Position numbers and translations under genes: made by a program. Of a stretch of DNA of 64,000 nucleotides, positions 3,001 through 37,565 are shown in pieces. Under the pieces are notes generated by a model. The model was not told where the DNA came from, did no database searches, and saw only the letters and a list, made by a program, of their open reading frames with translations. The DNA is from Acidimicrobiales bacterium (GTDB lineage: Bacteria; Actinomycetota; Acidimicrobiia; Acidimicrobiales; SZUA-35): assembly GCA_047974625.1 (NCBI GenBank), contig JBKECK010000068.1:68714-132713 (forward strand), written 5' to 3'. Every line of letters begins with the position of its first letter. Position 1 is the stretch's first letter.

Positions 3001-3368
3001 GTGCCGTCCGCACGGCACTCCTGGGGCATCTGGACCCACTGCTGTTTGGGATCGAGCATGACCTCGGCCACCAACGCGTCGGCCGCGCCATCGTTGAGGC
3101 TCAGCTCCACCTGATAAGCAATCGTGTCGTGCAGCCGGACGACGTCATTAGTCGCGTTGGCATCAAGCCCCGCATCGGTGACGGCGACCGGGTCCCAGGT
3201 GGCGCCATCGAACGGTTCCGAACCGGTCTTCGAGGTACTGAGGGTAACCCTTACCGTTGGGACGGCAGCCTCGGCTGCTGGTGCAGTCCACGTCAATGTG
3301 GTTGCCGTGACCGCGGCGACGGCCAGCAGCGCGAGCCAGACTGAACGTGGGGTGCGAGATGTGACCAT
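1..3368 (-). CDS. Large secreted repeat-domain surface (adhesin-like) protein, N-terminal ~1120 codons; the gene continues past the left edge
   Basis: Absent from the ORF track because no stop lies inside the window. The minus frame starting at ATG 3368 is the only frame with no competing listed ORF across 3.3 kb. Hand translation begins MVTSRTPRSVWLALLAVAAVTATTLTWTAPAAEA/AVPT, a Sec signal peptide with an AxA site. It runs through DUF11-like repeat segments (VNAGQTVEFELQ...MDQLPGQTDFV; IVEVDTPIAFDLQYRNLG...FIDVLP). At the window edge it reaches GSIGDRVWL, the usual start of SdrD/Cna-B-type repeats. Confidence 0.7.
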   Translation of the reverse strand, partial: MVTSRTPRSVWLALLAVAAVTATTLTWTAPAAEAAVPTVRVTLSTSKTGSEPFDGATWDPVAVTDAGLDANATNDVVRLHDTIAYQVELSLNDGAADALVAEVMLDPKQQWVQMPQECRADGTPASVIADSATGQPGGDKRLLVCNVGTGSEGTNRVLYPTARVVPVASDGQVTRNDDHVSAMVRAWAQNAEGPSAEATAGPTETTVTAGFKVNLTKSLPVEGVDAEGNPLYQPRYAVGPSNQPGTLMEYVVRATYEPGSMLADSDEVTYQVDYTLLDAYTDDNPNNTTGSGLSSGAIPYTWGPTGSACTLLGDHGAAASITCTPNQVSGDFVSAIGGEPPQDDPTITVQLDNVDVRDPDGDGNLFEFKLTLWHLHTSELDTDPSCLTGVCEIFESNRVGALEGGAQVGFNPYSTEDAGGNNLPNYGGAGEAFPTDSTASFPLRKTSPGGWSASVGWDGLVAWGIPQKATTIEAVAPGDVAFAQANVWDYRMIDGSSDQHCTKIDTSVTEFVGLTGAPAPSTTAYSFNRSTRNPSLVLWAGTTANATHHDPTTYLSFLYSTEPAAALTELQNDTCADDVNSDSVVNIQAADGTQSTPGAVVDWYADAQAVPGGNQAITKIRYQLDIDTDHLNALHPGVDHVAIAVNYDIKVKLGAMGYGPNNLIPLWAVARRSDAAGTWSSWSGVGTGSANPADPSFSYEGAYADRMRVVSSAHSIAKRTVPAGLKVVNAGQTVEFELQPQVLGQWNEATQSTAQIMDQLPGQTDFVFGSERFSVDGGSTWLTFAQYQVSSPDVTMTLAGSSVTPTGHGAAASRLEYHFADIQNSEQLPLIRYQVAVDSSVTSGTFTNSASIDSDMGTDTDGDGASNRRTVKYQVYMEAGTGFDVLKAVADQIVEVDTPIAFDLQYRNLGLEDYSGGSFIDVLPYRGDGDYSGGIQTDRTPASRYSGDYQVTAVSGGNSEVFWATDAEPGSVSVDPCAGSNLALGYVPTDGDLCYRTYSSSGATLPDGQTAGTGTTTWTQCTALSPLECGSLDPADITAIRFDTGVISGAGGAHTVTVTIDPVGNVGGTPAFNPTGRVTGASGGDIYTNNFGGRIPEISLNVISNDVSATVVAGSIGDRVWL

Positions 3369-3532
3369 CAGCGAAAGGCATCGGCAACTTTCGGTGATGA
3401 TTGAGTTATCAACGAAAACTGAACGAGCGCCATGCCGTCATGATGCTGGTCAATGCCGTGTCCGTCGTCGGCCAGTTCCAGTGATCAGTGCACGGTGAGG
3501 GCTGAACCTGACCCCTGATACCGGAGTCCGAA

Positions 3533-3870
3533 TTGAGAGGACCTAATACGGGAAGGCGTCCGAAGTTTGATGCGGAGTTTTGTGCTCACGCAGTGGAGAT
3601 GGTCGGGTCGTCTGGCCGTCCGAGGTATCAGGTCGCAAAGGATCTGGGTGTTTCTGGCACTACCATCGCGAAGTGGATGGCTGCTGAGAAAACCAATGAC
3701 GATCCGGAACCGTCGTCGGTCTCTGAACGATAGGATTATGAACGTCTCCTGAATGCCGAGCGTGAATGGCAGATGGAACGAGAGATCCTAAAAGGAAATG
3801 AGCTTCTGGGTGAAGGCGTCGACCGGCCGGTTGAAGTACCGGTTCATCGATGCCCAGAACGCCCGGATCG
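3533..3870 (+). mobile_element. Degraded IS3-family transposase orfA relic (in-frame TAG plus frameshift; 3' part missing)
   Basis: 3533-3733 encodes RRPKFDAEFCAHAVEMV...RYQVAKDLGVSGTTIAKWM, an IS3/IS911 OrfA-type HTH. After the TAG at 3731 the same frame continues ERLLNAEREWQMEREILK. The +1 frame then continues MSFWVKAS..RLKYRFIDA, a typical OrfA C-terminus. No orfB/DDE part and no terminal inverted repeats were seen. The relic abuts the 3' end of the YcaO operon, and GC is locally lower. Confidence 0.6.
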
Positions 3871-3905
3871 ATCCTTCGACTGGTGAGCGGGTCGGCGAGT
3901 TCCGT

Positions 3906-5285
3906 TCAGTGCGGAAGAGGTTGCAGACGGAGACCGGTGCCGTTGGCTCGCCTATCCATGCGGGTGCCGCCGAGGAAGGGGAACGCCGCGGCTCCGTTGG
4001 AGTACAGCCCGGAAGCGATCACGCGGACGACACTGAGCCCGGCTCTGCGAACGTCGGAGGTGGTGACATCCACCGACACGGCCCGGATTCCGGCGTCGGT
4101 GAGGGTTGCCACGATCCCGGGGAGGTCCATCGCGGGCGGTGAGCCCAATGGCTCATGCATCTCCGAGTCGAGAAGCGGCCAGGACGTCAGCTCCCGTTCG
4201 AGGTCATCGGCCAACTGGGGGTCGAGGTAGGCCTGCATGTGGCAACCGGGGTCGACTGCGTCATGCCAGTCCGGGCGGTAGTCGAGCAGGTAGGAACGGT
4301 CTTGTCGCCACGGCTTGAGCGGGCTGTCCGGGCTGCGGGTCAGTGGACCGAACGCTGAGTCCGGGTCGTTGAGGTCGGCCATCACGGTCTGAATGTGGGC
4401 CGCCTCGGCGAGCGCCTTCACACACGCCGCCGCGGTCACATCCGGATACCAGGCGGTACCAAGAGTGAGGTAGCCCCGGACCTGATCCCGCATGAGCGCA
4501 CCCACGCAGGGCGCACCGAAATCGCTCGGAAACGTCACGAAGGTAGTGCGCAACTCTCCGGTCGGCCCGGAAGCGAGTCGCTCCAACCAGTGCGGTGCCT
4601 GCAGCCGGGCTCCCGTCGCCCCTGTGGTCCAAGTCAGCGTCATCGCGTCCCGTTCGATGAGTTCCCGCACCGCGCTGGACTCGGCGTGGGTGCGGTCACT
4701 GCCTGCGGCGATGCCAGCGTAGACGGTCGCGTTGGTGATCGGTTCGCCGACGCTGAACCCGTGGGCGAAGTAGTTCGTCCAGACCAGGGAGGCCGGCACC
4801 CACACCGGGGCTCGGGTAAGCACGTCCTGGCCCTCCACCCACCGCACCGGCAAGTCGGGGGGGAACCGGCAGAACGGGAAACCGCGCTCGTTGTACTGGG
4901 CGTCGCTGTACAACGCCAATCCAGTCGGGTCGAGCGCGTCTTCGTCCGCAGCTTGCAACTGCTCGAACGAGGCCCGGCGCAGGCCTGGCGGAACGATGTT
5001 TCCGCTATACCGCTCGGCCGCCTCCCCGATGGCGGCTGCAACGGCTCCTGGTAGGTCCCACAGCACCGATCCCATTCCCGACGGATCGCTGCGCCAGGGG
5101 CAGAACCGCGTCGAATCGGCGATATCTGCTTGGACCAGCTGCAACGCCTGTGGCAGGTGGTCCGGGACAAGGCGTCGAGCGAGCCGGGACACGATCCCGG
5201 TCCGGGAGCCGACGAGTAGGTTCTTCGGGTCGGGGGCGGAGAGGTCGCCCCCGAGGTCCAACTGTGTGTTCGTCATCACGAGCAA
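3906..5285 (-). CDS. YcaO-domain protein, paralog C (last gene of the operon)
   Basis: Motifs AIGEAAERYSGN, LYSDAQYNERGFPFCRF...VRWVEG...VWVPASLV, YAGIAAGSDR...ELIERDAMTLTW and a Pro-rich C-terminal tail LQPLPH. The N-terminal SRTGIV...ADSTRF signature is shared with the other two paralogs. The true start may be GTG 5279 or ATG 5276, downstream of a GGAG. Confidence 0.85.
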   Translation of the reverse strand: MLVMTNTQLDLGGDLSAPDPKNLLVGSRTGIVSRLARRLVPDHLPQALQLVQADIADSTRFCPWRSDPSGMGSVLWDLPGAVAAAIGEAAERYSGNIVPPGLRRASFEQLQAADEDALDPTGLALYSDAQYNERGFPFCRFPPDLPVRWVEGQDVLTRAPVWVPASLVWTNYFAHGFSVGEPITNATVYAGIAAGSDRTHAESSAVRELIERDAMTLTWTTGATGARLQAPHWLERLASGPTGELRTTFVTFPSDFGAPCVGALMRDQVRGYLTLGTAWYPDVTAAACVKALAEAAHIQTVMADLNDPDSAFGPLTRSPDSPLKPWRQDRSYLLDYRPDWHDAVDPGCHMQAYLDPQLADDLERELTSWPLLDSEMHEPLGSPPAMDLPGIVATLTDAGIRAVSVDVTTSDVRRAGLSVVRVIASGLYSNGAAAFPFLGGTRMDRRANGTGLRLQPLPH

Positions 5286-5327
5286 CTCCGTTCAGCGACG
5301 CCCCGGCGAGCAGCGTCAGCCGTGGTT

Positions 5328-6683
5328 TCAGCAGGGCAGCGGGTAGTCACGAGGCGGACCGGGAGCGGCCGCACGGGCAGCATCCAGGCGCGCCCCACCA
5401 AGGAACGGGTAGGCGGCCGGGCCCGAGGAGTACAGCGCCGGGGCGATAACCCGGACGACGACCAGCCCGGTTCGGGCGAAGCCCGACGGGGTCAGGTCGA
5501 CCGACACGGGTGTGATCCCGGCAGCGGCCAACCGTGACAGGAGTTCGTCGGCGGCAGGGCCCGGGGACTGTGTCGGCGACGTTGGCGCTGCGAGCGGCCA
5601 CTGCCCGACGTCGGACTCCAGCCGATCGGCCAGCGCCGGGTCCAGGTACGCCTGCAGGTGACAGGCCGGGTCTCCGGCATCGCGCCAGTCGGGCCGGTAG
5701 CTACTGAGGTACCTGCGGTCGTCACGCCACGGTTTGAGCGGGCTGCTGGGATCGACTCGCAACGCCTCGAAGCCGGAGTCCGGGTCGTCCAGGTCCGCGG
5801 CGATCATCTGGCCGTGTAGGGCTTGGGCGAACGCTTCGTGCAGCGCAGTGCCCCTCACTGTGGCGGGTCGCCAGGAGGTGCCGAGTGTGAGGTAGCCCAA
5901 CGATCGGTCCCGCACCAACACGCCGACGCTTGGAGGGCCGAACTCGCTGGCGAACTCGACGAAGGTGGTCCGCAACCGGCCCGTGGGTCCGCGCCCAAGT
6001 GCGGCGAGGTGCCCGCCCACGTCCAGGCGTCGACCGACCGCTCCGCTGTGCCAGGTGAGTTCGCGCGCGTCTGCCTCGATCAGGCTGAACAGCGCAGCGC
6101 GTTCGGCTGCTTGGCGGGTGGGGCCCGAGGCGATGGCGGTGTGCAGGGTGGCGTGCGTTGCTGCTTCTGGCTCTCCTGTCTCGTCCGGTCGGGCTGTCCA
6201 TGCCAGCGAGGCGGGAACCCAGACCGCTTCGTGGCCGGTCATGGTGCGTCCACGGGCCCACCGCAGCGACAGGTCGGGGTCGAACGGCACGAACGGGAAG
6301 CCGGGAGCGGCGTACTGCGCGTCGGAGTACAGCGACAACGTAGTCGGGTCGAGTACTCGCTCGCCGCCTGCGGTGAGCTCGGCGTACGTGCTGCGCCGGA
6401 GTCGGGCTGTGACGAAATTGCCCGCGTAGCTCTCCACGGCGGCGGCCAGAGCAGCGTGGGTCGCCGCGGCGTCGTCCCACAGAGCCAGGCCGACGACGGC
6501 GACGTCAGTGGTCCACGGCCCGAAGCGGGTGGAGTCTGCCAGTTCGGCGCAGACCACCCGCAGGCACTGGGGCAGGTGCGGTGGAACTCCAGGCCGGAGG
6601 AGGCGTCGGACCAGGCCGGTTCGGGCATCCACCACCACGAGCTGCAACTGGTCGGTCGTTGGCCCCCGCGTCGCCACGTTCAC
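5328..6683 (-). CDS. YcaO-domain protein, paralog B (divergent nucleotide-binding motifs)
   Basis: Same overall architecture (LYSDAQYAAPGFPFVPF...LRWARG...VWVPASLAW, C-terminal DYPLPC). The two acidic motifs, however, read AAAVESYAGN and SLIEADARELTW instead of GEAxERY and ELIERDA. The GTG start at 6683 overlaps the TGA of paralog A (GTGA). Confidence 0.8.
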   Translation of the reverse strand: MNVATRGPTTDQLQLVVVDARTGLVRRLLRPGVPPHLPQCLRVVCAELADSTRFGPWTTDVAVVGLALWDDAAATHAALAAAVESYAGNFVTARLRRSTYAELTAGGERVLDPTTLSLYSDAQYAAPGFPFVPFDPDLSLRWARGRTMTGHEAVWVPASLAWTARPDETGEPEAATHATLHTAIASGPTRQAAERAALFSLIEADARELTWHSGAVGRRLDVGGHLAALGRGPTGRLRTTFVEFASEFGPPSVGVLVRDRSLGYLTLGTSWRPATVRGTALHEAFAQALHGQMIAADLDDPDSGFEALRVDPSSPLKPWRDDRRYLSSYRPDWRDAGDPACHLQAYLDPALADRLESDVGQWPLAAPTSPTQSPGPAADELLSRLAAAGITPVSVDLTPSGFARTGLVVVRVIAPALYSSGPAAYPFLGGARLDAARAAAPGPPRDYPLPC

Positions 6684-8041
6684 GAGTAGGGCAGTGGGTC
6701 ACGCACCAGATCCGCTTCGGTCAGCGGTTCCGATGCCCAGCCGAGGAGGTGCGGTACCTCATAGAGCCGCCGACCGCCGAGCAGGGGGAGCGCTGCGGGC
6801 GCGTATCCGACGAGGCCAGGAGCGAGGACCCGGGTTACGTGCCAGCCAGCGGCGGCTACGTCGGCGCTGGTGCTGTCCACCGCGATGGCCCGTACGCCTT
6901 CGCGCTCGAGCGCGGTCACGCAGTGGAGGAACACGTCGGGGCCGATCTCCGGCATGTCGGCCAGGGACACGATCTCGACGGGTTTCTCGAAGCGGTGGGT
7001 GATTCGCTGCTGGGCCTCCGGGTCGAGGTAGAGCTGGGTGTGCGAGGCGAGGTCGGAGACGTCACGTAGGTCGTCGCGGAAGCTGCGGACATACGACCGG
7101 TCGGCACGGAAGGGACGGTAGGGGTGAGCGTACGCTGCCGCTGACCCGTCCATCGTGTACAGCCGTGCGTCTGGATCGAGCAGTTCGACGCCGAACAGCA
7201 GCCCGTCGATGGCCTCGACCAGCGCCTTGGCCGCGGCCGCAACCGGCTCGCCGCGACTGGCCGCGCCCCAGGCGATGAGCCCCCGCCGAGTGTCGTGTAG
7301 GAACGCACCGACGACTGGGACACCGAAGGTCGTCCGTAGCCACAGCAGTCGACACACGGTGCCCTGCTCATCCAGTTCGGTAGCCCACGCGGCAAGCCGG
7401 CCGTCGGAGTTCACGTCGATCTCGGTTCCGGGGGCTCCGCTCATCCACCAGATCGTCATGGCGTCGCGTTCGATCAGTTCGAGCAGGGCCGAGACGTAGG
7501 CCTGGCCTCGACGCGTTCCCGCCGCCATCCCCGCGTACATCTGGGCAACCGTGGGTTCGCCGGGTGGCGGGAGGTAGTTCAACAGGACCAGGCAGGCCGG
7601 CACGAGCACCTGCGTGTCCGCGACCAGGTCCCGGCCGGGGATCCAGGCGATGGTGGATTCTGCCGTAATCGGTGCGAACGGGAACCCGGGGGTCTCGTAC
7701 TGGCTGGCCGAGTACGGTGCGGCTTGCGCCGGGTCCAGGGCGTTGTGTCCGGATTCCCGTAGTTCTCTGAACGAGGCCCGGGTCAGGCTGGTCGGTTCGA
7801 TGTTGCCGCAGTAGCGTTCGAGCGCCTCCCCGACCGCAGCGGCACGGGCGGCGTCGGGGTTGTCGAGAGCGCTGCCGTGCCCGCACGGGTCGGCGCGCCA
7901 GGTCGCGAACCGGCTGGTGTCCGCCACGTGGGCGGTGAACGCCGAGTGCGAACGCAGGTAGCGATGTCTCGGGTCATCGGGTCGCACCGCGGTGATCAGG
8001 CCGGTACGGCCGTCAACCAAGCGGCCAGAAATACTGCTCAC
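6680..8041 (-). CDS. YcaO-domain protein, paralog A
   Basis: Motifs AAVGEALERYCGN, PYSASQYETPGFPFAPI...IAWIPG...VLVPACLV, YAGMAAGTRR...ELIERDAMTIWW and C-terminal DPLPYS. The start lies 11 nt after the stop of the partner gene. Confidence 0.85.
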   Translation of the reverse strand: MSSISGRLVDGRTGLITAVRPDDPRHRYLRSHSAFTAHVADTSRFATWRADPCGHGSALDNPDAARAAAVGEALERYCGNIEPTSLTRASFRELRESGHNALDPAQAAPYSASQYETPGFPFAPITAESTIAWIPGRDLVADTQVLVPACLVLLNYLPPPGEPTVAQMYAGMAAGTRRGQAYVSALLELIERDAMTIWWMSGAPGTEIDVNSDGRLAAWATELDEQGTVCRLLWLRTTFGVPVVGAFLHDTRRGLIAWGAASRGEPVAAAAKALVEAIDGLLFGVELLDPDARLYTMDGSAAAYAHPYRPFRADRSYVRSFRDDLRDVSDLASHTQLYLDPEAQQRITHRFEKPVEIVSLADMPEIGPDVFLHCVTALEREGVRAIAVDSTSADVAAAGWHVTRVLAPGLVGYAPAALPLLGGRRLYEVPHLLGWASEPLTEADLVRDPLPYS

Positions 8042-8052
8042 CTGAGTGCTGC

Positions 8053-8886
8053 TCAGTCAGCGAAGGCCGGTAGGGGGAGCACCGGGTGGCGGTGCACCAG
8101 CAGATCCACCGGATCCAACTCGATCTGGTCGAGCGCGCCGGGCGGATCCTGTCCGTCGAGGTAGGTGAGGACGTCGGTGACAATGTGCCCGGCGGCAACG
8201 GCGAGCGCACCCGGGCCCGGCCAGGGAACCGGCGGCTTGTGGGCCGCGGAGTCCAAGTAGGCCCAATGCGCCAGCAGCGCGTCTGGGGCACCGGCGGCGG
8301 CGAGCCGGCGGCCGCGGGTGTCGTGATAGCCGGCACTGACCCCCGGGATCGACAAGGGCCCGACGAAGAGCCTGACCCCTTCCATGTAGGCCATGTGCCA
8401 GGCCGTTCCCCCCTCAGCGCACCAGCCCTCCGTCTGCCGCCAGTCGGTGTCAGGGAGCCAACCGACACAGCTGATGAGCAGGTCCGAGCTGTTGACCGAC
8501 TCGGGAGTCAGCGGGTCGGTGTTCAGCTGCACCTCTCCGTCGAGCAAGGCGAGAACCTGGCGACCCAACGGCGTGTCAACACCGCTGACGAGTACCGTCG
8601 CCGCACGGGGCAGCGATTGGGGAGGGCCAGGCCGGCTCAGAAGGCCGCGGGCCATCAAGGCGGCCGCGAAGTGCGCGTGCACGTCGCCGGGGTCCTCTTC
8701 AAGGTGTGCGGCTTCAAGGTGTGCGGCTTCAAGGTGTGTGTCGCCATGAAGCGTGGCAACAAAATGCTCGAACTCCGGGCCGTCCACCTGCAGCCGCAGA
8801 AAGCGATCCTGAGGGGACATTGCGTTCCACGACCCGTCAGCGGTGCGGTAGACGTGGTGGCCGGGGGTGAGCCGAAGGTCGGTCAA
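8053..8886 (-). CDS. E1-like (ThiF-fold, non-catalytic) / RRE-type leader-peptide-binding partner protein for YcaO enzymes
   Basis: 277 aa, immediately upstream of the three YcaO genes. The N-terminal ~70 aa (LRLTPGHHVYRTADGSW...FLRLQVDGPEFEHFVATL) look like a winged-helix RRE. This is followed by a Rossmann-like strand-loop ATVLVSGVDTPLGRQVLALL without a GxGxxG nucleotide loop, as in TOMM/thiopeptide docking proteins. The TTG start at 8886 is preceded by GGAGA with a 7-nt spacer. The family call is by pattern only. Confidence 0.55.
   Translation of the reverse strand: MTDLRLTPGHHVYRTADGSWNAMSPQDRFLRLQVDGPEFEHFVATLHGDTHLEAAHLEAAHLEEDPGDVHAHFAAALMARGLLSRPGPPQSLPRAATVLVSGVDTPLGRQVLALLDGEVQLNTDPLTPESVNSSDLLISCVGWLPDTDWRQTEGWCAEGGTAWHMAYMEGVRLFVGPLSIPGVSAGYHDTRGRRLAAAGAPDALLAHWAYLDSAAHKPPVPWPGPGALAVAAGHIVTDVLTYLDGQDPPGALDQIELDPVDLLVHRHPVLPLPAFAD
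8707..8751. repeat. 15-nt in-frame tandem repeat x3 (cttcaaggtgtgcgg), encoding HLEAA-HLEAA-HLEED in the partner protein
   Basis: Two perfect copies plus a third that differs only at its end, read directly from the sequence. Confidence 0.9.
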
Positions 8887-8920
8887 GGTGTCGTCTCCAC
8901 GCTTGTCAAACAGATAAGGC

Positions 8921-8962
8921 GTGTACCGGCCGAGCCATCAGGCTTCGGATCGGCCGGTACAC
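8921..8962 (-). terminator. Strong hairpin between the precursor ORF and the enzyme genes (candidate partial terminator/attenuator or processing site)
   Basis: Perfect 13-bp inverted repeat GTGTACCGGCCGA (8921-8933) / TCGGCCGGTACAC (8950-8962) with a 16-nt loop that can pair further (GCC..GGC). On the transcribed strand it is followed by GCCUUAUCUGUUUGACAAG, which is U-enriched for this genome but not a canonical U-tract. Confidence 0.45.
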
Positions 8963-9014
8963 GCTCGCATGATGGCCGCCCTCAACGAATGTCAGGGGGG
9001 CGGTACTAGCCCAG

Positions 9015-9164
9015 TCAGTCGTCGGACTGGCTGTCGTCGGACTGGCTGTCGTCGGACTGGCTGTCGTCATCCCAGGCGAACGCAGCGTGCACGAGCGAGT
9101 TGTGCTTGTGCAGGGCGGCGATCGGGGCGGCGGTCTCGATGCTGTCGATTTCGATCGTGGGCAT
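9015..9164 (-). CDS. Candidate RiPP precursor peptide, 49 aa (below the size floor of the ORF track)
   Basis: Minus-strand reading is GGAGGA (9169-9174), AGCT, ATG (9164), 49 codons, TGA (9015-9017). Translation: MPTIEIDSIETAAPIAALHKHNSLVHAAFAWDDDSQSDDSQSDDSQSDD. No in-frame ATG or GTG lies upstream before the stop at 9228-9230. The ORF is on the same strand as, and 128 nt upstream of, the partner/YcaO genes. Confidence 0.7.
   Translation of the reverse strand: MPTIEIDSIETAAPIAALHKHNSLVHAAFAWDDDSQSDDSQSDDSQSDD
9018..9068. repeat. Perfect 15-nt tandem repeat x3.4 (gtcgtcggactggct), encoding the (DDSQS)n core of the small ORF
   Basis: Copies at 9018-9032, 9033-9047 and 9048-9062 are identical, followed by a partial gtcgtc at 9063-9068. 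Confidence 0.95.
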
Positions 9165-9216
9165 AGCTTCCTCCAGTGGCGAGATCCAGTCGGCAGGGCC
9201 GACTAGGACTAGGTGG

Positions 9217-9258
9217 GATAGTAATCGTTATTATTCTCATTTCAGATCCGTGGTGCAA
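9217..9258 (-). promoter_or_regulatory. AT-rich divergent promoter region with a candidate sigma-70-type promoter for the precursor operon overlapped by a Fur-box-like 19-mer
   Basis: Minus strand shows TTGCAC (9258-9253), a 17-nt spacer, then AATAAT (9235-9230). The 19-mer GATAGTAATCGTTATTATT (9217-9235) matches the classical Fur box GATAATGATAATCATTATC at 13 of 19 positions, counted by hand. This is the only strongly AT-rich patch between the divergent precursor and MFS genes. Confidence 0.35.
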
Positions 9259-9430
9259 GTCGAGGTAGATCGGAGTGTTCTGTGACTCGTCGCACTCAGC
9301 CCAGCCGAGGGAACCGGACACCGACCGGGCCGATGTCCGGCGCGGTCAGGGGGCGCCGCACGCGCCCGCACCGCATGGTCTCGGACCCGCCGACGCCGCA
9401 GGCCCGCCGGGACAGGTGGCCCGGTTGCGC

Positions 9431-10669
9431 ATGAGGCTGCGTGAGCGTTACCCGGTCCCGGCGGCCGTGGTTCTCGTGTTGGTGGCACAGTTCGTCGCCC
9501 GCCTGCCCATGGGCATGTACTCGGTGGCGCTCGTGTTGGCGGTCGTGCACTGGACCAGTTCGTTCGCGACAGCCGGTGCTGCCGTGGCCGGTTTCAACCT
9601 TGCCGGTGGTGTGATCGCGCCGTTGGTCGGGCGACTGGCCGACCGTCATGACCCGCGCCCCATCCTTGGTGGCCTCGCTCTCGGACATGCGTTGGCAGTT
9701 GTCCTACTCGTTGCCACCGCCGAGGGGCTTCCCCACGTGGTCTTCCCGGTGCTCGCAGCGGTGGCCGGTGGCTGCATGCCTCCGATCGGGCCGGCGCTGA
9801 AGGCGACGTGGAGCCGACGATTCGATTCCGAGGACCGGGTGCTGCGGGCGGTGTTCGGCCTTGAGTCCGTGCTGGGCGAAGCGGTGTATCTACTGGGTCC
9901 CGCGCTGGCCGGTGCCGCGACCGCGCTCGGCGGGGAGCCGTTCTCGTTGCTCACGGCCGGTGCCCTGACCCTGGGCGGCACCGCAGCGATCATCGCCGGG
10001 TCGACGTTGGCCCACCCGCTCGCAGGAGCGACTCGTTCCGGTCCGAGCGCAGCGGCGCTGCGTTCACGGGGGCTGCAGATCCTGCTCGTGACCCAGGCGC
10101 TGTCGTTCGTCGCGTTCTCTGGGATCAGCCTCGGGGTGCTGGCCCTGGCGGAGGCCCAGGGCTTGTCCGCCACCGGTGCGCTGCTGCTGTCAGTGTGGGC
10201 GGCCGGTGCGGCCATCGGGGCGTTGATCTGGGGGGCGCGAGCCCAGTGGCCGGGTACACAGGCCCAGCAGTTGCACGCCGTGTTGTGGTTGGTCGCCGCC
10301 ACCAGCGGCGCGGTCGCGCTTGCGGGCGCAGCGCTTCCAGCCGTAGCTGCAACAGCAGGCTGGGCGTTGCTGGGCGCAGCCTTGCTGGCGGCGGGCGTGG
10401 CCCTCGCCCCCGGGGCGATCGTCGAGGCGACCCTGGTCGGTCAGGTCACGGCCGTCGGGCGTCGCACCGAGTCCTACGCCTGGCTCGGAACGGCGGCGCT
10501 GGTGGGGTCCGCTGCAGGCTCAGCACTGTTCGGCCTGCTGGTTGCACAGTGGGGAGGGGCAGCCGCCCTGATCGGCGCGGTGGTAACCGCCGCCGCCGCC
10601 GCGATGATCGCCGGCCTGGGACGACCGGCGCTGGAGCTGCCGACGGCTGTCGCGGACCGGGGATCCTGA
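9431..10669 (+). CDS. MFS transporter (putative exporter), divergent from the precursor gene
   Basis: About 12 hydrophobic segments, with MFS-like loops (GRLADRHDPRP after TM2). The track ORF starts at 9275, but its first ~50 codons are Arg/Pro/Gly-rich. ATG 9431 (MRLRERYPVPAAVVLVLVAQF) is the more plausible start. Confidence 0.7.
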   Translation: MRLRERYPVPAAVVLVLVAQFVARLPMGMYSVALVLAVVHWTSSFATAGAAVAGFNLAGGVIAPLVGRLADRHDPRPILGGLALGHALAVVLLVATAEGLPHVVFPVLAAVAGGCMPPIGPALKATWSRRFDSEDRVLRAVFGLESVLGEAVYLLGPALAGAATALGGEPFSLLTAGALTLGGTAAIIAGSTLAHPLAGATRSGPSAAALRSRGLQILLVTQALSFVAFSGISLGVLALAEAQGLSATGALLLSVWAAGAAIGALIWGARAQWPGTQAQQLHAVLWLVAATSGAVALAGAALPAVAATAGWALLGAALLAAGVALAPGAIVEATLVGQVTAVGRRTESYAWLGTAALVGSAAGSALFGLLVAQWGGAAALIGAVVTAAAAAMIAGLGRPALELPTAVADRGS

Positions 10670-10750
10670 CGCCGCCGGCAACGGGCAGGACCTCGGATCG
10701 TTGACGAGCTGTCTGATCGCCGGCCGATCCAGCACCTGTCGGGTGGCATA

Positions 10751-11614
10751 ATGGCGGTCATGGACGGCGGGCTGCACAGAGCGGGATTGATCGGCGGGGC
10801 AGGCCCCCACCGTCGGGTGGTGGCCATCGACACGGGTCCGCTGCTGGCCGTACATGCGCTCGGCGCCGCTGAGCAGCTGGTCGCGGTCAACGCACTGGAC
10901 GACGGGCGGCTTCCGGACGATGCCACCTGGACGGGGCGCCGGCTGGACCAGCGATTCCCGCCCCTGGAAGCCATCATCGACCTCGAGCCGGACCTGGTCG
11001 TCTCGGGTGACAACGAGGCGTTTGAACCCGGCGCCTTCGGAGACCGGTACGCCCTCGCAGATCGGGGCATCGCCAGCTTCCTCTTCGCCGAGGCCGCGAC
11101 CGAAGGAGACGACGACGCCGACCCGGTCACGCTCGAGTCAACGTGGGCGGACCTCACCGCGCTCGGCACAGCCCTCGGTCGCGACGAGGCGGCCGCGCAG
11201 CTGGTCGCCGATCAGCGAGCGGAGCTTTCGGCGGTTCCCGGAGGTTCGGCGGTTCCCGGAGGTAACGAGTCGGTGGTGCTGGTCGTGGATGACTGGTTCG
11301 CCGACGGGTCGATGCTGACCGCTGGCGGGGTGGCGGTCGTGTCAGATCTCCTCCGGCGAGCCGGCTGCCGGGGCACCTTCGACGACCGCCCATGGGCCTA
11401 CGGCACGGTCGCGGCGGACGACCTCGCCGAGCGCCCGCCCGAAGGGGTGCTCGTCAGTGACTACGGCCGTCGTAGCGTCGACGAGAAACTGCGACGCCTG
11501 GGACGGATCGTGGATCTCCACGGAGTCGGGGTCGTCGTGTTGCCGCTGCACACCACCGTGGAGGGGGTCGGCAACGCCGAAGCCATCGCCGAGCTCGCGG
11601 TGCTGCAGAAGTGA
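10751..11614 (+). CDS. FecB/BtuF-type (cluster A/type 8) periplasmic-binding-protein homolog lacking any signal peptide
   Basis: RVVAIDTGPLLAVHALGAAEQLVAV...PPLEAIIDLEPDLVV... is typical of siderophore/cobalamin binding proteins. The ORF is already maximal (a stop lies upstream) and has no signal or lipobox segment. It contains an 18-nt x2 repeat (11227-11262, SAVPGG x2). Confidence 0.5.
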   Translation: MAVMDGGLHRAGLIGGAGPHRRVVAIDTGPLLAVHALGAAEQLVAVNALDDGRLPDDATWTGRRLDQRFPPLEAIIDLEPDLVVSGDNEAFEPGAFGDRYALADRGIASFLFAEAATEGDDDADPVTLESTWADLTALGTALGRDEAAAQLVADQRAELSAVPGGSAVPGGNESVVLVVDDWFADGSMLTAGGVAVVSDLLRRAGCRGTFDDRPWAYGTVAADDLAERPPEGVLVSDYGRRSVDEKLRRLGRIVDLHGVGVVVLPLHTTVEGVGNAEAIAELAVLQK

Positions 11615-11678
11615 CCGCGGACCTCCCACGAGCGCTTCACCTGCCGAGTTGGGTCCGGTACCGGTCCGCGGGGCTGGA

Positions 11679-12461
11679 TCAGTTGGGCCTGAGGCGGACG
11701 CGTGGTTGGCCGTAGACAAGTTGCGGAACACCGTCCGGGCCGTCGACACGGCGGACGCTGATGCCGTAGACAGACTCGATGCGCTCCGGGTGCAGGACCT
11801 CTGACGGCAGGCCCTCGGCAATCACCGCGCCGCGGTTGAGCAGTACCAGCCGGTCGCAGTAGCGCGCCGCCAGGTTGAGGTCGTGGAGAACGATGACGAC
11901 AGACGACGCCAGGCGGCAGACCAGGTCCAGCAGTTCGTGTTGGTAGCGAACGTCGAGGTGGTTGGTCGGCTCGTCCAGGAAGAGGTGGTCGACATCCTGG
12001 GCCAGCGCCCTGGCCAGTAGCACCCGCTGCCGCTCGCCTCCAGAAAGCTCGGTGATCAGATCGTCGGCGCGGTCACGGAGCCCGACCTGGGTCAGCAGCT
12101 CCGCGGCGACCCGGTGGTCTTCAACGTCGTAGCTGAGGAACGGGCCACGTTGTGGGGCCCGGCCGAGCAGCACCATCTCCGCGACGGTCATCGCCAGTTC
12201 CGACACGGGGTCCTGCACCACAACGGCGACGCGGCGAGCGAGGTGGCGTGGGCGCAGGTCGGCAACGTCGTCACCGTCGATCAGGACGCTGCCGCCGCTC
12301 GGCCGGATGGCCTTGTAGAGAGACCGCAACATCGTGGTCTTGCCCGACCCGTTGGGGCCGATGAGGCCGACGATCTCACCGGCCGCCGCCCGAAACGAGG
12401 CGCCGTCGAGGGCCCGCCGCGAGCCGTAGTCGACGGTGACGCGGCGGGCGTCGACGCTCAC
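11679..12461 (-). CDS. ABC transporter ATP-binding protein, FecE/FepC-type (iron-siderophore/cobalamin importer class)
   Basis: Walker A GPNGSGKTT, signature LSGGERQRV and Walker B LFLDEPTNHLD. The GTG start overlaps the stop of the binding-protein gene (GTGA). Confidence 0.85.
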   Translation of the reverse strand: MSVDARRVTVDYGSRRALDGASFRAAAGEIVGLIGPNGSGKTTMLRSLYKAIRPSGGSVLIDGDDVADLRPRHLARRVAVVVQDPVSELAMTVAEMVLLGRAPQRGPFLSYDVEDHRVAAELLTQVGLRDRADDLITELSGGERQRVLLARALAQDVDHLFLDEPTNHLDVRYQHELLDLVCRLASSVVIVLHDLNLAARYCDRLVLLNRGAVIAEGLPSEVLHPERIESVYGISVRRVDGPDGVPQLVYGQPRVRLRPN

Positions 12462-13450
12462 GAGGTGGCGAGTCCCTCGCTGATGATCTGCAGCCCCTCC
12501 AGCGCGGAGGGTGACGGCTCGGCGAAGACCCCCGGGACCGACACGAGGCGGTCGTTCGCTATGGCCTGGAGGTCCTCCGCACCCGGCAGAGCCAGCAGTC
12601 GGCGCATCGTCTCCTCCTCGTCGATTTCAGGGCTCAGGCTGTGGAACAGCACAATGGTGTCCGGGTCGGCCGCGATCAGCTCTTCGATGTTCAGCTCGAA
12701 GAACTGCTCCTGCACATCGCCGAAGACGTTGTCCAGACCCAACTGGTCGAATACTGCGTCGACCACCGAGTCGTCACCGAATGCCGACGGGTCCGCCCCG
12801 AACCAGTAGAGGCCGGCGACCGTCCCACCGCCCTCAACCGGTTCGACGTCCTCAAGGGTGCTGTCGAACTCATCCGCGGCCGCGTCCGCGGTGCCCTGGG
12901 TCCCGAACAGTTCGCCGTAGGTGCGAATGTCGGCGCTGACCAACTCCAGGGCCGAGGCATCCGCCAGCTCGCCGTCGTGGTCGCCGCAGTAGTTGGCGAT
13001 CAAGAGATGGTCGACGCCGGCCGCGGCGAGGTCCTCTGGAGTGGTCTCGAACAGTCCGTAACTGACCACCAGGTCAGCCCCGGTTCCGAGGATCGCCTCC
13101 TGTCCGGGGTCGCCGTCGGTCAGGACCTCGACATCGGCGACCGCTTCCCCGGCCTCGCCCGGTGCCGTCGCGCCGAACTCGCCGGCACGGGACACGATGA
13201 GATCGGACGCACCGGCAGCATGCAGGATCTCGACCGCGACGGTGCCGATGGTCAGAATGCCCTCGGGGGCATCCTCGATCACGACCTCCTCGCCACAGTT
13301 CTCGATGGTCATCGGGAACGAAGCTGCCGTATCGTCGCCCTCGTCGACAGTGGTCGCCGCGGACTCCTCGTTCGGCTCCGCGCTGCTGCAGGCGCTGGCG
13401 ACGAGTACCAGGACCAGGACGGTGACGATCGATGCAATTCGTGTGGTCAC
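12458..13450 (-). CDS. ABC substrate-binding lipoprotein, FecB/siderophore-binding type
   Basis: The real start is GTG 13450, preceded by AGAGGA with an 8-nt spacer. The N-terminus VTTRIASIVTVLVLVLVASAC is a lipoprotein signal with a lipobox Cys. The listed longer ORF (to 13624) overlaps the permease gene. Confidence 0.7.
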   Translation of the reverse strand: MTTRIASIVTVLVLVLVASACSSAEPNEESAATTVDEGDDTAASFPMTIENCGEEVVIEDAPEGILTIGTVAVEILHAAGASDLIVSRAGEFGATAPGEAGEAVADVEVLTDGDPGQEAILGTGADLVVSYGLFETTPEDLAAAGVDHLLIANYCGDHDGELADASALELVSADIRTYGELFGTQGTADAAADEFDSTLEDVEPVEGGGTVAGLYWFGADPSAFGDDSVVDAVFDQLGLDNVFGDVQEQFFELNIEELIAADPDTIVLFHSLSPEIDEEETMRRLLALPGAEDLQAIANDRLVSVPGVFAEPSPSALEGLQIISEGLATS

Positions 13451-13469
13451 GAACAGGTTCCTCTCTGGA

Positions 13470-14609
13470 TCAGGGATTGGTGGGAGTCTTGGGGGCTGTG
13501 CGGCGGAGCAGCAGAACGATGAAGGGGGCCCCGACCAGGGAGGTGACGACGCCGATGGGCAACTCACGGGGGGCGAACGCGACGCGGGCGAGGATGTCGG
13601 CGCCGACCAGCAGGGCAGCCCCACTCAGGGCGGCGACGGGTAACAGCCGACGGTGGACACCGCCGACCAGCCGGCGTGCCAGGTGGGGAACCACCAGGCC
13701 GACGAATCCAATGGTGCCCGACACCGCGACCATGACGCCGATGCAGAGTGCGACCAAGACGAGCGTGTTCGTGCGGACCCGCGTCGGGTCGGTGCCGAGG
13801 GTCCGTGCGGTCTCGTCGCCGGCAGCGATCGCGTCGAGGGACCTGCTGAGGGCGATGAGGACGAGCAGCACGACGACAACGGTCAGCATGGGGACCGCCA
13901 CACTCGACCATCGGGCCTGATCGAGGCCGCCGAGCAGCCAGAACAGCACCGCTCGGGCACCCTCCCGGGCGTCAGAGGCGAAGATGGTGAAGCTGGTCAG
14001 CGCCGACAGGGTGTACCCGACGGCGACCCCTGCCAGGATCAGGCGGATCGCCGTCGCCGGTCCGCCCAGCCGTGCCAGCGCGAAGACCAGGCCGATGGCA
14101 GCCAACCCCCCGACGAAGGCGCTGCCCGCCAACGCGTTTGCCCCCAGCGCGCTGCCCACCCCGAACAGGATGCTGAGCGACGCCCCGAACGACGCGCCCG
14201 AGGAGACGCCGAGCAGGTAGGGATCGGCCAGCACGTTGCGGACCAGAGCCTGGATCGCCACCCCGCAGATCGACAGCCCCGCCCCGACGGCAAGGCCCAG
14301 CAGCACCCTGGGTGTCCGGACCAGCCAGACGATGTTGTCCTGCGTCGTGGTCCAGGTGACCTCCGCAGGGACGCCGACGGTGTGATGACCGATGACCGAC
14401 CAGACAACGTCCGGAGGGATCGGCACCGGGCCCAGGGCCACGCCCAAGGTGACAACCGCCACCAGCGCCGCCGCGGTTCCCAGGGTCCAGATCAGAACCT
14501 GCCGACGCCGACGGTTGTAATCCAGGTCGTCGGTGAACTCAGGTGCCGGCTCATCGGGTTCGGCACCTCCAAGCGGCACCGCCTGGCGTTCGACGTCGGC
14601 CTGGCTCAC
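13470..14609 (-). CDS. FecCD-family ABC permease
   Basis: Polytopic membrane protein with typical FecCD segments (LLGLAVGAGLSICGVAIQALVRNVLADPYLLGVSSGASFG...; C-terminal VVTSLVGAPFIVLLLRR). Confidence 0.85.
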   Translation of the reverse strand: MSQADVERQAVPLGGAEPDEPAPEFTDDLDYNRRRRQVLIWTLGTAAALVAVVTLGVALGPVPIPPDVVWSVIGHHTVGVPAEVTWTTTQDNIVWLVRTPRVLLGLAVGAGLSICGVAIQALVRNVLADPYLLGVSSGASFGASLSILFGVGSALGANALAGSAFVGGLAAIGLVFALARLGGPATAIRLILAGVAVGYTLSALTSFTIFASDAREGARAVLFWLLGGLDQARWSSVAVPMLTVVVVLLVLIALSRSLDAIAAGDETARTLGTDPTRVRTNTLVLVALCIGVMVAVSGTIGFVGLVVPHLARRLVGGVHRRLLPVAALSGAALLVGADILARVAFAPRELPIGVVTSLVGAPFIVLLLRRTAPKTPTNP

Positions 14610-14824
14610 ATCCTCTCCGACCGGTAGGTGGCGAGTGGCGTGTGGTGGGAGTCGCCCGCGCCGAGAAGCGCCCGGATCTCCGTTGCGGTTGGCCCCACAG
14701 CGCCGCCTCGGCGACGAGCGACGCGAGGGTGACTAGCCCGACAGCCAAGCACGTGAGGACCGGTCCGGCGACGGCTCCCACCAGGTGGAGTAGCAACAAT
14801 GCAGACGGTGGAGCACGTGGGGAC

Positions 14825-14861
14825 GATAACACTGGCAGGAATGAGAACCAGTATCGTTATC
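14825..14861. promoter_or_regulatory. AT-rich imperfect palindrome upstream of the FecCDE-type operon (candidate operator)
   Basis: GATAACACTGG-cAGGAATGAGAA-CCAGTatcGTTATC. It contains the octamers AATGAGAA (14840-14847) and ATCGTTAT (14853-14860). Both also occur in the precursor promoter patch: ATCGTTAT at 9224-9231, and TTCTCATT (the reverse complement of AATGAGAA) at 9234-9241. Confidence 0.3.
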
Positions 14862-14930
14862 TAGTGTTTAGGTCGATCGACTCACCACATGATCCTGGAC
14901 TTCGACTGGCGACGGTGACTCGGCCGCGCC

Positions 14931-15130
14931 ATGGCTGGATCGATCGCGTCTCCGGTGCTGGGGGGGATGCTCGTGGATGCCGCGGTCGCGGTGGATGTCC
15001 CTTATCAACGTTCCGCTGGGGCCGGTGGCGATCGTAATCAGCGCCGCGAGCGGGACGGGAGCAGGTTCGACCTGCTCGGCGCGCTCCTGCTCGGGGTTCG
15101 TCCCCCAGCCCCGGGAACCACCCCGTGCGG
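14931..15130 (+). pseudogene. Relic of a DHA2 (EmrB/QacA-type) MFS transporter gene, short and frameshifted
   Basis: Three consecutive pieces lie in two frames: GSIASPVLGGMLVDA, then RWMSLINVPLGPVAIVISA, then RFDLLGALLLGV. Together they reproduce the conserved TM5-TM6 region (G.LGG.LVD..WRW.FLINVP.G) of DHA2 transporters. No intact ORF is present. Confidence 0.5.
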
Positions 15131-15498
15131 ATCGCCTCGGAGCGTCTGCGAGGCGATATTCGCCGACTCGATCGCCGACGATGTGATGAAGTGATCTCCA
15201 GGCGTCGGCTCCGGCGGGCAGGGGGTTCCAGTTGGAGCCCCGGTTCCCCAGGTCGGGGCCCGTCATCGGCGAAGGGTTCGACTCCCCACCGGTCGGCCCT
15301 CGGCACCACACGCTCGGCGTGACTCAACGAGACGGCTCTGCGGGCTTCGGGCCCCCGTCGACTCGATGAGGGTGTCGGGGGTCGGCTGCCATGGGTCCGG
15401 TCCGGCACGTCCGGAAGCGATTGCGCCGTGGCCGGATGAGGCCCCCGCCGCGTCCGTTCTCACCCCCCACTCACTCGAATGACCCGAAGGAGGCCACG

Positions 15499-16230
15499 AT
15501 GGTTCGATCGCGACAGACTTGGCGGTACAAGGTCGCCGACCCCGATCGGCCCCTTCGGCTGGGCCAGCGGGCCACGGTGAACCCGTGGCAGCGTGGTGTC
15601 CTGCTCCGACGGGGGAAGCTGATCGGTGAGGTCGGCCCGGGTTCGTTCCGATGCTGGCGAACCGGAACCGTACTGCGTCGGGTCGACACCCGGCCCTCGG
15701 TAGTGACCGTCCGGGGCCAGGAGATGTACACCGCCGACGGGGTATCGGTGAAGGCCACTGCGACGGCGCTGGTGCGGATCGTCGACGTCACCGAGCACAT
15801 CACCGGAACCGGCGACCCCCAGGAGGTGCTCCACCTCGCGGTGCAACTGGCCCTCCGGCAGGTGACCAACGCCCGCACTGTCGATGAGCTCCTTGAGCAG
15901 CGGGCCGGGCTCGGCGCCGAGCTCAGCGGCGCCCTGGGCGACCTGACCGGGACCGGCGCCGTGGTGGACCATGCGGACGTGAAGGACCTGGTGCTTCCCG
16001 CCGACCTGCGGCGGGCCCAGGTGGAGGTGCTGGTGGCCCGGGCCTCCGGTCGGGCCGCCCTCGAGCGGGCCCGGGGCGAGACCGCCGCCCTGCGCAACCT
16101 GACCAACGCGGCCCGGCTCCTGGCCGACCAACCGGCCCTGCTCCAGCTCCGAGCCCTGGACCACTCCGACACCACCACCGTGGTGGTCGGCCTGCCGGAC
16201 ACCCCGGTGGCCGTCAAGCCCACCCCCTAG
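15499..16230 (+). CDS. SPFH/Band 7 (stomatin/prohibitin-like) domain protein
   Basis: ATG 15499 is preceded by GAAGGAGG with a 5-nt spacer. The SPFH core is visible (DGVSVKATATALVRIVD...ADVKDLVLPADLRRAQ...AALERARGETAALRNL). Confidence 0.7.
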   Translation: MVRSRQTWRYKVADPDRPLRLGQRATVNPWQRGVLLRRGKLIGEVGPGSFRCWRTGTVLRRVDTRPSVVTVRGQEMYTADGVSVKATATALVRIVDVTEHITGTGDPQEVLHLAVQLALRQVTNARTVDELLEQRAGLGAELSGALGDLTGTGAVVDHADVKDLVLPADLRRAQVEVLVARASGRAALERARGETAALRNLTNAARLLADQPALLQLRALDHSDTTTVVVGLPDTPVAVKPTP

Positions 16231-37101: not shown

Positions 37102-37565
37102 CGTCATCCGCCAGCAACCAGCCCACCAGCAACCAGCCCACCGCCGACCGGACCGCCTCGGACCGGGCGGCCGTCGAACAGCTCCTGGCCACCTACAACA
37201 TGGCTATCGACCTGGGCGACATCGACACCTGGGTCTCGTGTTTCACCGACGACGGCGAGTTCGTGTGCGACGGCCTCCCCGAGGGTGCCCCCCTCGGCGG
37301 GCTCCACCGCGGCAAGGACGCCCTCCACGCCTACGGCCGGACCCACTACGGGATCAACAAGGGACGGGCCCGGCACTGGAACTGGAACCTGCTGCTCGAC
37401 GTCGACGGCGACACCGCCACCCTCCAGTGCTACCTGAACGCCTGCTCGGCCGGCCAGGGCGACTCGGCCACCCTCCGCTCCACCGGGATCTATCGGGACC
37501 GGCTGGTCCGCACCGCGGACGGCTGGCGCTTCCGGCGCCGCCACGTCACCATCGACCCGGCCTGA
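37098..37565 (+). CDS. SnoaL-like / NTF2-fold protein
   Basis: AVEQLLATYNMAIDLGDIDTWVSCFTDDGEF...YRDRLVRTADGWRFRRRHV. ATGA overlap with the LLM gene. Carries a 15-nt x2 repeat (37113-37142, SNQPT x2). Confidence 0.6.
   Translation: MTSSASNQPTSNQPTADRTASDRAAVEQLLATYNMAIDLGDIDTWVSCFTDDGEFVCDGLPEGAPLGGLHRGKDALHAYGRTHYGINKGRARHWNWNLLLDVDGDTATLQCYLNACSAGQGDSATLRSTGIYRDRLVRTADGWRFRRRHVTIDPA

Follow-up and report, generated by a model that had tools for sequence, protein, structure and literature searches.

In the present study, we analysed a short open reading frame (ORF) on the minus strand, at positions 9015-9164, of a 64,000-nucleotide stretch of DNA from an Acidimicrobiales bacterium (assembly GCA_047974625.1, contig JBKECK010000068.1, positions 68,714 to 132,713; hereafter the window). 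This ORF is probably the precursor gene of a streptamidine-like, AmiA-related operon for a ribosomally made peptide that is modified after translation (RiPP), and its conspicuous DDSQS tail would be a slipped and dispensable follower. An earlier note on the same DNA had described it as a candidate RiPP precursor heading an operon with a leader-binding partner and three YcaO genes, and had taken the (DDSQS)x3 tail for the core. The sequence facts of that note were all confirmed. Along the minus strand, the ribosome-binding site GGAGGA (9174-9169) is followed by 4 nt, the ATG (9164), 49 codons and the TGA stop (9017-9015), the translation is MPTIEIDSIETAAPIAALHKHNSLVHAAFAWDDDSQSDDSQSDDSQSDD, and 128 nt separate the stop from the downstream TTG start (8886) of a partner gene encoding 277 aa, after which come the three YcaO genes.

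The ORF is a real gene under purifying selection, homologous to its family over residues 4-36. In a window of 71% G+C, its G+C content is 0.92 at third and 0.42 at second codon positions, a coding signature observed in only 1 of the 107 window ORFs of 40-60 aa, namely this one. Orthologues were observed in the closest relative, the stromatolite metagenome contigs L043-45 (partner 75% identical, YcaOs 83-87%), and in L046, P0042 (a 41-aa precursor peptide from the contig of P0002) and P0046. The operon recurs in the closest relative, where FecCD and FecB and a divergent transporter of the major facilitator superfamily (MFS) are followed by precursor, partner and three YcaOs, and L043 shows the same GGAGGA-spacer-ATG layout. 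Between the window and this relative, codons 15-31 differ by only three synonymous changes and one A/P substitution, and the non-coding DNA flanking the precursor is approximately 52-56% identical. The earlier note had supposed that a routine gene caller could miss the ORF; however, an identical 49-aa protein from an Acidimicrobiales metagenome-assembled genome (MAG) is already in NCBI as MFV0525287.1, 'hypothetical protein', and homologues have been called on metagenome contigs. The exact peptide sequence was not found in the contig index, although it is present in the protein collection.

Several lines of evidence connect this gene with a described family. Russell et al. 2021 (PMC8442711) reported 237 short, mostly unannotated peptides encoded beside one actinobacterial YcaO clade ('Network 1'), carrying motif A or B, both with 'ALV', in 1-3 copies per peptide. 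The corresponding clusters encode a partner, AmiB, with a cryptic RiPP recognition element (RRE) and an E1-like part, the hydrolase AmiC, sometimes the dehydrogenase AmiE, and FecBCDE-like importer genes, and a sub-group in Frankia, Rhodococcus and Clavibacter has two YcaOs. First, residues 1-33 of the window peptide, in which the family motif ALV reads SLV, match NF040715 ('streptamidine-related RiPP repeat protein') with 19.3 bits (E 7.8e-4; curated cut-off 45 bits), and bridging family members score 26 and 70 bits on this model. Second, a custom hidden Markov model (HMM) of 20 family peptides, with the window peptide and its nearest relative left out, matched the ORF with 37.8 bits over residues 4-36 (E 3.5e-10 against 1002 stop-to-stop segments of the window); the next-best segment had an E value of 2.7, and the precursor was the sole match in the window. 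A profile search returned 57 relatives, and the window peptide aligns end to end with that of Protofrankia (MEEISFEVLNEEPVLAAPQDPTTHALVQNPFAWDEEK); related precursors from a Pseudonocardiales MAG (…VLPALSKHNALVDNPFSWDEPEGD) and an Egibacteraceae MAG (…AIPALGHGHALVHNPFAWEAEEE) were also observed. Third, the genomic context agrees. The partner has only about 22 homologues in a large protein collection; 41 genome loci were retrieved with the partner-homologue alignment, metagenome contigs were then added, and about 35 of these related loci show a homologous small ORF directly upstream of the partner. Thus, the view of the ORF as a RiPP precursor heading a partner and YcaO operon is borne out by the conservation of a small ORF at this position, whereas a D/S/Q-repeat C-terminus is not conserved with it. 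A precursor of this family is expected to be a short ORF (31-89 aa) that shares its strand with a YcaO gene of the clade no more than 8 kb away, and the window ORF encodes 49 aa about 1 kb from the first YcaO gene (Y1). The window partner and YcaOs have homologues in the Frankia, Rhodococcus and Amycolatopsis family clusters, and Fec-type transport genes (two Peripla_BP_2, FecCD and an ATP-binding cassette (ABC) ATPase, 10751-14609) adjoin the operon as they do in the family. Because of the HMM match, the bridging members, the syntenic small ORFs, the partner fold and the flanking Fec-type importer and MFS genes, membership at the family level appears solid by sequence comparison, and the peptide falls outside the curated sub-family models NF040714 and NF040715. 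The suggestion in the earlier note of a YcaO substrate class not yet described is thus not supported. The RiPP precursor family is known, but the ORF belongs to a new clade of it, with the motif …IPALHKHN[AS]L[VL]H..F.W…, and lies in a variant operon; neither this PALHK clade nor the order Acidimicrobiales is represented in the data set published by Russell et al. 2021.

The comparison also indicates which part of the peptide matters. The conserved part of the precursor is I15-W31 (IAALHKHNSLVHAAFAW), and the family homology ends at residue 36 in the custom HMM alignment. Behind it, a perfect 15-bp tandem repeat of 3.4 copies (9018-9068, minus strand; Tandem Repeats Finder score 102, 100% identity) encodes (DDSQS)x3 and a final DD. 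Such a repeat cannot have arisen by chance, and since the units are identical in their DNA, the expansion is recent. The precursor of the closest relative, MPTIEIDGIEINTHIAALHKHNSLVHAPFAWGDDSPVGNESA, holds a single related unit, GACGACAGCCCCGTC, and is unrelated to the window peptide after …FAW-x-DDS, its tail being GDDSPVGNESA with no repeat. Other tails of the clade are DEERRSESGI, RDASQERTSR, DDEAEDVRKPPE, DDEAEDVK, DEDAEGEG and DEPEDD; orthologous tails hold 0-2 Ser, and several tails in the clade, including those of L046/P0023 and P0040, are without any Ser, Thr or Cys. These results do not support the reading of the (DDSQS)x3 tail as the core. Moreover, AmiA consists of a leader, HLSATH and SNALVENPFDDEQE; its core directly precedes the NALV block, its acidic end is discarded as a follower (PMC8442711), and this core aligns with I15-K20 (IAALHK) of the window peptide, directly N-terminal of NSLV. 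We therefore propose a layout of leader (M1 to about P14), predicted core region (about I15-H21), recognition or follower block (N22-W31) and acidic tail (D32-D49), in which (DDSQS)x3 would be a recent, lineage-specific DNA-slippage expansion of a variable acidic follower and most probably neutral. A graspetide reading, with Asp/Ser ester cross-links, was also considered and rejected: the operon contains only the partner and the YcaOs and the tail is not conserved, although ATP-grasp genes were not searched for in the remaining 45 kb.

The repeat itself is real and no assembly artefact, since an independent sequencing run (L001) contains the same locus at 99.6% identity over 5.3 kb, and its contig breaks within the repeat with at least two units visible. 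The caveat of the earlier note, that this genome carries perfect short repeats in unrelated genes, was also substantiated. The adjacent partner gene contains a perfect 15-bp repeat, (HLEAA)x2.8 (8697-8738, minus strand), which is missing from the 75%-identical orthologue (a 10-residue gap) and falls in a low-confidence loop of the partner model (a block with a predicted local distance difference test score, pLDDT, of 55). Short in-frame duplications by slippage seem to arise readily in this genome. Further perfect in-frame repeats were observed at 11227-11263, 37111-37142, 38712-38762, 52109-52189 and 57194-57228.

The enzymes of the operon conform to the family in part and depart from it in part. 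The partner (8053-8886, minus strand, 277 aa) shows a weak TIGR03882 match, and its AlphaFold2 model (pLDDT 86) predicts an N-terminal RRE-like beta3-alpha3 unit and an E1-like domain; in Foldseek, these two parts matched LynD, TruD, MccB, PaaA and McbB (E 6e-11 to 3e-8). Thus, the model is consistent with an AmiB-like partner with a cryptic RRE and an E1-like fold, and the leader-binding role foreseen for this gene is supported by it. Y1 (6680-8041, minus strand, 453 aa) is AmiD-like, with both E-x-x-E-R motifs intact (Pfam 196 bits, TIGR03604 285 bits) and, from the LynD alignment, an intact LynD-like C-terminus (…PLTEADLVRDPLPYS); it is also the enzyme that the lone YcaO of one-YcaO loci matches best. 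The third gene, Y3 (3906-5285, minus strand, 459 aa), represents the second YcaO type of two-YcaO clusters, with intact motifs, and both Y1 and Y3 score above the TIGR03604 cut-off for the SagD subfamily. Between them, Y2 (5328-6683, minus strand, 451 aa) is a degenerate paralogue of Y3 (51% identical to Y3 and 33% to Y1). The motif residues were mapped from the LynD alignment, from the McbBCD paper, from conservation across the family and from the YcaO ATP-binding residues reportedly defined by Dunbar and co-workers in 2014. Both Mg/ATP motifs of Y2 are lost (GEALER to AAAVES, ELIERD to SLIEAD), with AAVES and GLIEAD in the L043-45 orthologues, whereas both are kept in 57 of the 62 other complete YcaO genes of the loci. 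Mutating a Mg-coordinating Glu nearly abolishes the activity of McbD (PMC6395948). Nevertheless, Y2 remains under purifying selection, with a ratio of non-synonymous to synonymous divergence (dN/dS) of 0.30 against the closest relative, compared with 0.21 for Y1 and Y3. Since both motifs have been lost and selection has been kept, we infer from these comparisons that Y2 would be a conserved, non-catalytic pseudo-YcaO with a scaffolding role. A search of the literature found no account of inactive YcaO paralogues. Three YcaOs were observed only in the window lineage and in L043-45. Thus, three YcaO genes are indeed present, as the earlier note had stated, but the catalytic motifs are kept in only two of them. 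As side observations, the Y3-type YcaO of Protofrankia coriariae (L008:13930-15218) appears in two tblastn segments, possibly a frameshift or pseudogene, and the second YcaO of L048 has been called as two genes (195 and 248 aa).

In addition to the coding sequences, a regulatory element was observed in the family. An AT-rich palindrome just upstream of the precursor ribosome-binding site in many loci fits the Zur box of actinobacteria, with the consensus taaTGaNAANNNTTNtCANta (PMC5472717); examples are GTGATGAAAACCGTTTTCATCAC in Amycolatopsis suaedae and the perfect box ATATGATAACGGTTGTCATCA in the closest relative (L043). In the 200 nt preceding the precursor ATG, the density of boxes with at most one mismatch to TGANAANNNTTNTCA exceeds that in the rest of the loci 119-fold (13 in 7.2 kb compared with 10 in 662 kb), and such boxes occur in 11 of 36 family loci, 19-113 nt upstream of the precursor start codons (L006:9735-9749, L008:9674, L009:9736, L019:9672, L020:9658, L032:9573, L033:9319, L034:9470/9496, L035:9293/9319, L037:9311 and L043:7214). 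Other matches lie next to CobW/COG0523 genes (L034:3502, L037:4107), CobW/COG0523 being a classical member of the Zur regulon (PMC6103462), and in the divergent FecCD/MFS promoter (L002:8371, L013:8368). Because the remaining matches precede COG0523 and cluster transporter genes, the view that the boxes are genuine and co-regulated is supported, and the distribution of the boxes suggests a zinc-responsive control of streptamidine-like clusters. In the literature searched, no link of the family to Zur or zinc was found, and the founding study reported no metal binding by streptamidine (PMC8442711). In the window, an AT-rich remnant with three mismatches (TAATAACGATTACTA, approximately 9216-9232, minus strand) lies at the position of the perfect box of the closest relative. 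With three mismatches in the best site, a Zur box at the precursor promoter of the window is therefore not firmly claimed, and a Zur-box-like site upstream of the Fec-type operon (14842-14856, minus strand, two mismatches) is by itself at chance level. As a separate observation, a different palindrome, TTGCGAATCGTTCGCA, and its variants occur in 2-3 copies some 48-112 nt ahead of the precursor ATG in L016, L018, L022, L024, L026 and L029; the carriers are of the single-YcaO 'HTPAVD…F.W' sub-family, in which it replaces the Zur-type box, and it may be the site of another metal regulator or of some other regulator.

The operon can be compared with several known systems. The streptamidine (ami) cluster of Streptomyces albidoflavus J1074 (PMC8442711; NF040714) shares with the window a short acidic precursor, poorly annotated in both, upstream of an AmiB-like partner and an AmiD-like YcaO, an N-x-L-V-x-x-x-F block followed by an acidic C-terminus, and FecBCDE-like importer genes nearby. 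However, the core equivalent is IAALHK(H) rather than HLSATH and lacks Ser3, and the window peptide has F-A-W and an 18-residue tail, compared with about five residues in AmiA. The window operon, in an Acidimicrobiales host, also has three YcaOs instead of one, lacks the AmiC hydrolase and the AmiE dehydrogenase, and is accompanied by an MFS transporter instead of the AmiT ABC exporters. The motif-B clusters with two YcaOs in Frankia, Rhodococcus, Clavibacter and Amycolatopsis (NF040715) are similar in having a 38-44% identical partner, both Y1- and Y3-type enzymes and, as in the window, an uncharacterised product, but they carry an S15-family peptidase between partner and Y1 and no third YcaO. 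Among the amidines made by YcaO enzymes, bottromycin involves two YcaOs with different jobs and klebsazolicin an E1-like partner (summarised in PMC8442711). These pathways resemble the proposed one in the ATP-dependent activation of a backbone amide by a YcaO and an amine nucleophile, but their precursors have no sequence relationship to that of the window, their cores hold heterocyclised Cys or Ser, and they lack a degenerate YcaO paralogue such as Y2. Finally, classical thiazole/oxazole-modified microcins and linear azol(in)e-containing peptides (microcin B17, cyanobactins) share the E1-like/RRE partner and a YcaO of the SagD subfamily; they have a conserved Cys/Ser/Thr-rich core and a dehydrogenase, whereas the conserved centre of the window peptide has no Cys, Ser or Thr that is invariant across the family, the sole Ser-rich part is the non-conserved tail, and a nitroreductase-family gene (McbC/SagB-type flavin dehydrogenase) gave no tblastn match in the window.

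Several points weigh against a streptamidine-like reading of the window operon and have to be considered together. The NF040715 score of the peptide is below the curated NCBIfam cut-off. An S15-family peptidase, the counterpart of AmiC, lies between partner and Y1 in 23 related loci and in L048, which combines a PALHK-type precursor with the S15 peptidase and a nitroreductase, but tblastn at E<=0.01 found no S15 peptidase in the 64-kb window and none in L043-47. The AmiC-type hydrolase is essential for streptamidine (PMC8442711), and owing to its absence from the window the source of a free N-terminal amine is unexplained. In the same study, the gene set of the family is treated as variable, and the missing hydrolase therefore marks a variant and does not exclude membership. 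In addition, the invariant L24, V25, F29 and W31 sit in the proposed follower, so that the true core could be there, and the expanded tail might serve in solubility, metal binding or protease spacing. Motif-B peptides are without a heterocyclisable residue in the region equivalent to the core (PMC8442711), members of the motif-B or PALHK type have no known product, and our search of the literature found no characterised product of motif-B or two-YcaO clusters. As no chemistry has been reported for this sub-family and the motif-B core offers no heterocyclisable residue, any assignment of modified residue(s) or of a nucleophile is guesswork.

Herein, we propose a mechanism to describe how such an operon might work. 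First, the RRE of the partner would bind the leader with its acidic and hydrophobic residues (I-x-[IF]-[DE]-x-[IV]-E), the invariant N-x-L-V…F-x-W block, or both. Second, backbone amides of the conserved centre would be activated by Y1 and Y3 at the expense of ATP, and an intramolecular nitrogen nucleophile might attack the activated amide and close a ring, by analogy with the N-terminal amidine of streptamidine. Y2, with its motifs lost but conserved, would serve as a non-catalytic scaffold. Third, the acidic C-terminus (D32-D49) would be cut off as a follower, in which (DDSQS)x3, as an in-frame 15-bp replication-slippage expansion without a counterpart in relatives, probably has no specific role. 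The product would be exported by the divergent MFS transporter, and the nearby Fec-type importer, together with the Zur-type boxes in relatives, may point to a metal-related function, perhaps in zinc.

Other readings of the locus have to be weighed against this one. A bolder version, which we regard as doubtful, is that the IPALHKHN[AS]LVH clade (the window, the stromatolite contigs and other metagenome contigs) follows a hydrolase-independent route to an undescribed product. In this case, two active YcaOs and a pseudo-YcaO scaffold would modify the His/Lys-rich core IAALHKH (for example, at the Lys20 side chain or through an internal amidine), and the family would be Zur-controlled and take part in zinc acquisition.

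It is unlikely that the operon is merely a decaying, non-functional remnant in this genome, as might be suspected from the lack of an S15 hydrolase in the window, the lost motifs of Y2, the three mismatches in a Zur-like box that is perfect in the relative, and the in-frame repeat insertions in two adjacent genes, precursor and partner. However, all five ORFs (precursor, partner and three YcaOs) are intact, and the same hydrolase-less layout with three YcaOs has been kept between the window and L043-45 at a synonymous divergence (dS) of 0.33-0.56, with dN/dS of 0.21-0.30 for all enzymes. Furthermore, both insertions are in-frame, one in a tail and the other in the low-confidence loop of the partner, and the second sample contains the same locus at nearly complete identity.

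Similarly, there is little probability that the expanded acidic/Ser tail is adaptive, as a spacer, a solubility tag, a cation-binding stretch, or a recognition element for a protease or exporter. Almost all family members have an acidic tail after F-x-W, the repeat is common to two samples, and the distant member P0064 (L049:110-280) has independently evolved a repetitive acidic tail, DDETEVETEVETEAKAEVEAE (DDETEVETEVETE…), which means that low-complexity tail expansion recurs in the family. Against this, neither the length of the tail (0 to 21 residues) nor its sequence is constrained across the clade, where tails are hypervariable; the perfect DNA identity of the units indicates an event too recent for selection to have acted, and the same slippage is found elsewhere in the genome.

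The least credible reading is the one in which the D/S/Q repeat is the core and three YcaOs modify three DDSQS units, by Ser cyclodehydration or Asp-directed chemistry, as a new substrate class: it can appeal to the six tail Ser as the only classical nucleophiles of the peptide, to the equal numbers of repeats and YcaO genes and to the 1-3 repeated cassettes that family precursors may hold, but against it stand the repeat-free tail of the closest relative with the same three-YcaO operon, the Ser/Thr/Cys-free tails of L046/P0023 and P0040, the loss of catalytic motifs in Y2, the lack of an azoline dehydrogenase in the operon, the recent age of a perfect DNA repeat whose like is found in the neighbouring gene, and the finding that truly repetitive family precursors duplicate the whole leader-core-NALVxNPF cassette rather than five tail residues. 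The match of three repeats to three YcaOs, to which the earlier note had drawn attention, is a coincidence, since the relative has its three YcaOs but lacks the repeat, and activity seems likely for only two of the enzymes.

The surroundings of the operon were also examined. Between the precursor stop and the partner start, a GC-rich hairpin (8919-8964, minus strand; L043:7449-7494) folds with a z-score of -2.9 (-4.0 in L043). Its stem, GTGTACCGGCCG/CGGCCGGTACAC in the window and GTGCACCGGCCG/CGGCCGGTGCAC in L043, contains a compensatory pair change from T-A to C-G, and the spacer DNA around it is only about 52% identical. Such hairpins are common downstream of RiPP precursor genes, and we infer that this one would act as a partial terminator or mRNA stabiliser that raises the ratio of precursor to enzyme transcripts. 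A scan of 8700-9500 found no consensus sigma-70 promoter and no intrinsic terminator, and an Rfam scan of 1-16000 found no credible RNA family. Upstream, the divergently transcribed MFS gene (9275-10669, plus strand; Pfam MFS_1), whose true start is probably later than 9275, occupies the same position in L043-45 and on the P0002 contig, and it is likely the exporter. The Fec-type import genes comprise a Peripla_BP_2 gene (10751-11614, plus strand), an ABC ATPase (11679-12461, minus strand), a second Peripla_BP_2 gene (12458-13624, minus strand) and a FecCD permease (13470-14609, minus strand). The two Peripla_BP_2 genes of the window lie on opposite strands and one is short (287 aa, compared with 400 aa in L043:4464-5666), and in L043 a DDE transposase adjoins the transporter genes; the different layouts point to local rearrangement. 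At the other end, the operon stops at Y3 and is followed by a 540-nt spacer of low G+C (approximately 57%). Beyond it, a frame plot showed one long minus-strand gene (1-3368) that runs off the window start and is for that reason missing from the ORF list. Its product, unrelated to the operon, is a secreted protein that has a signal peptide, a length of at least 1122 aa and a terminal GSIGDRVWL-type motif; Pfam found no domain in four short ORFs in 1-3900, the long ORF itself not being scanned.

A new class of YcaO substrate in the form of an Asp-dominated repeat would have been an important finding, but it is not borne out by the evidence. Instead, the locus is a worked example of how a conspicuous repeat misleads the prediction of a core peptide and how comparison with the nearest orthologue settles the question. 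For the mining of genomes for RiPPs, it adds a precursor clade, IPALHKHNxLVH…FxW, that was missed by the curated NCBIfam models and by the founding data set, and an operon variant without a leader hydrolase and with a conserved YcaO paralogue that appears catalytically dead. The Zur-type boxes may matter more, since they lead to a testable hypothesis, zinc limitation, on what this widespread RiPP family does and when it is induced. If true, Zur-controlled zinc acquisition would give the streptamidine family a function, none being known so far.

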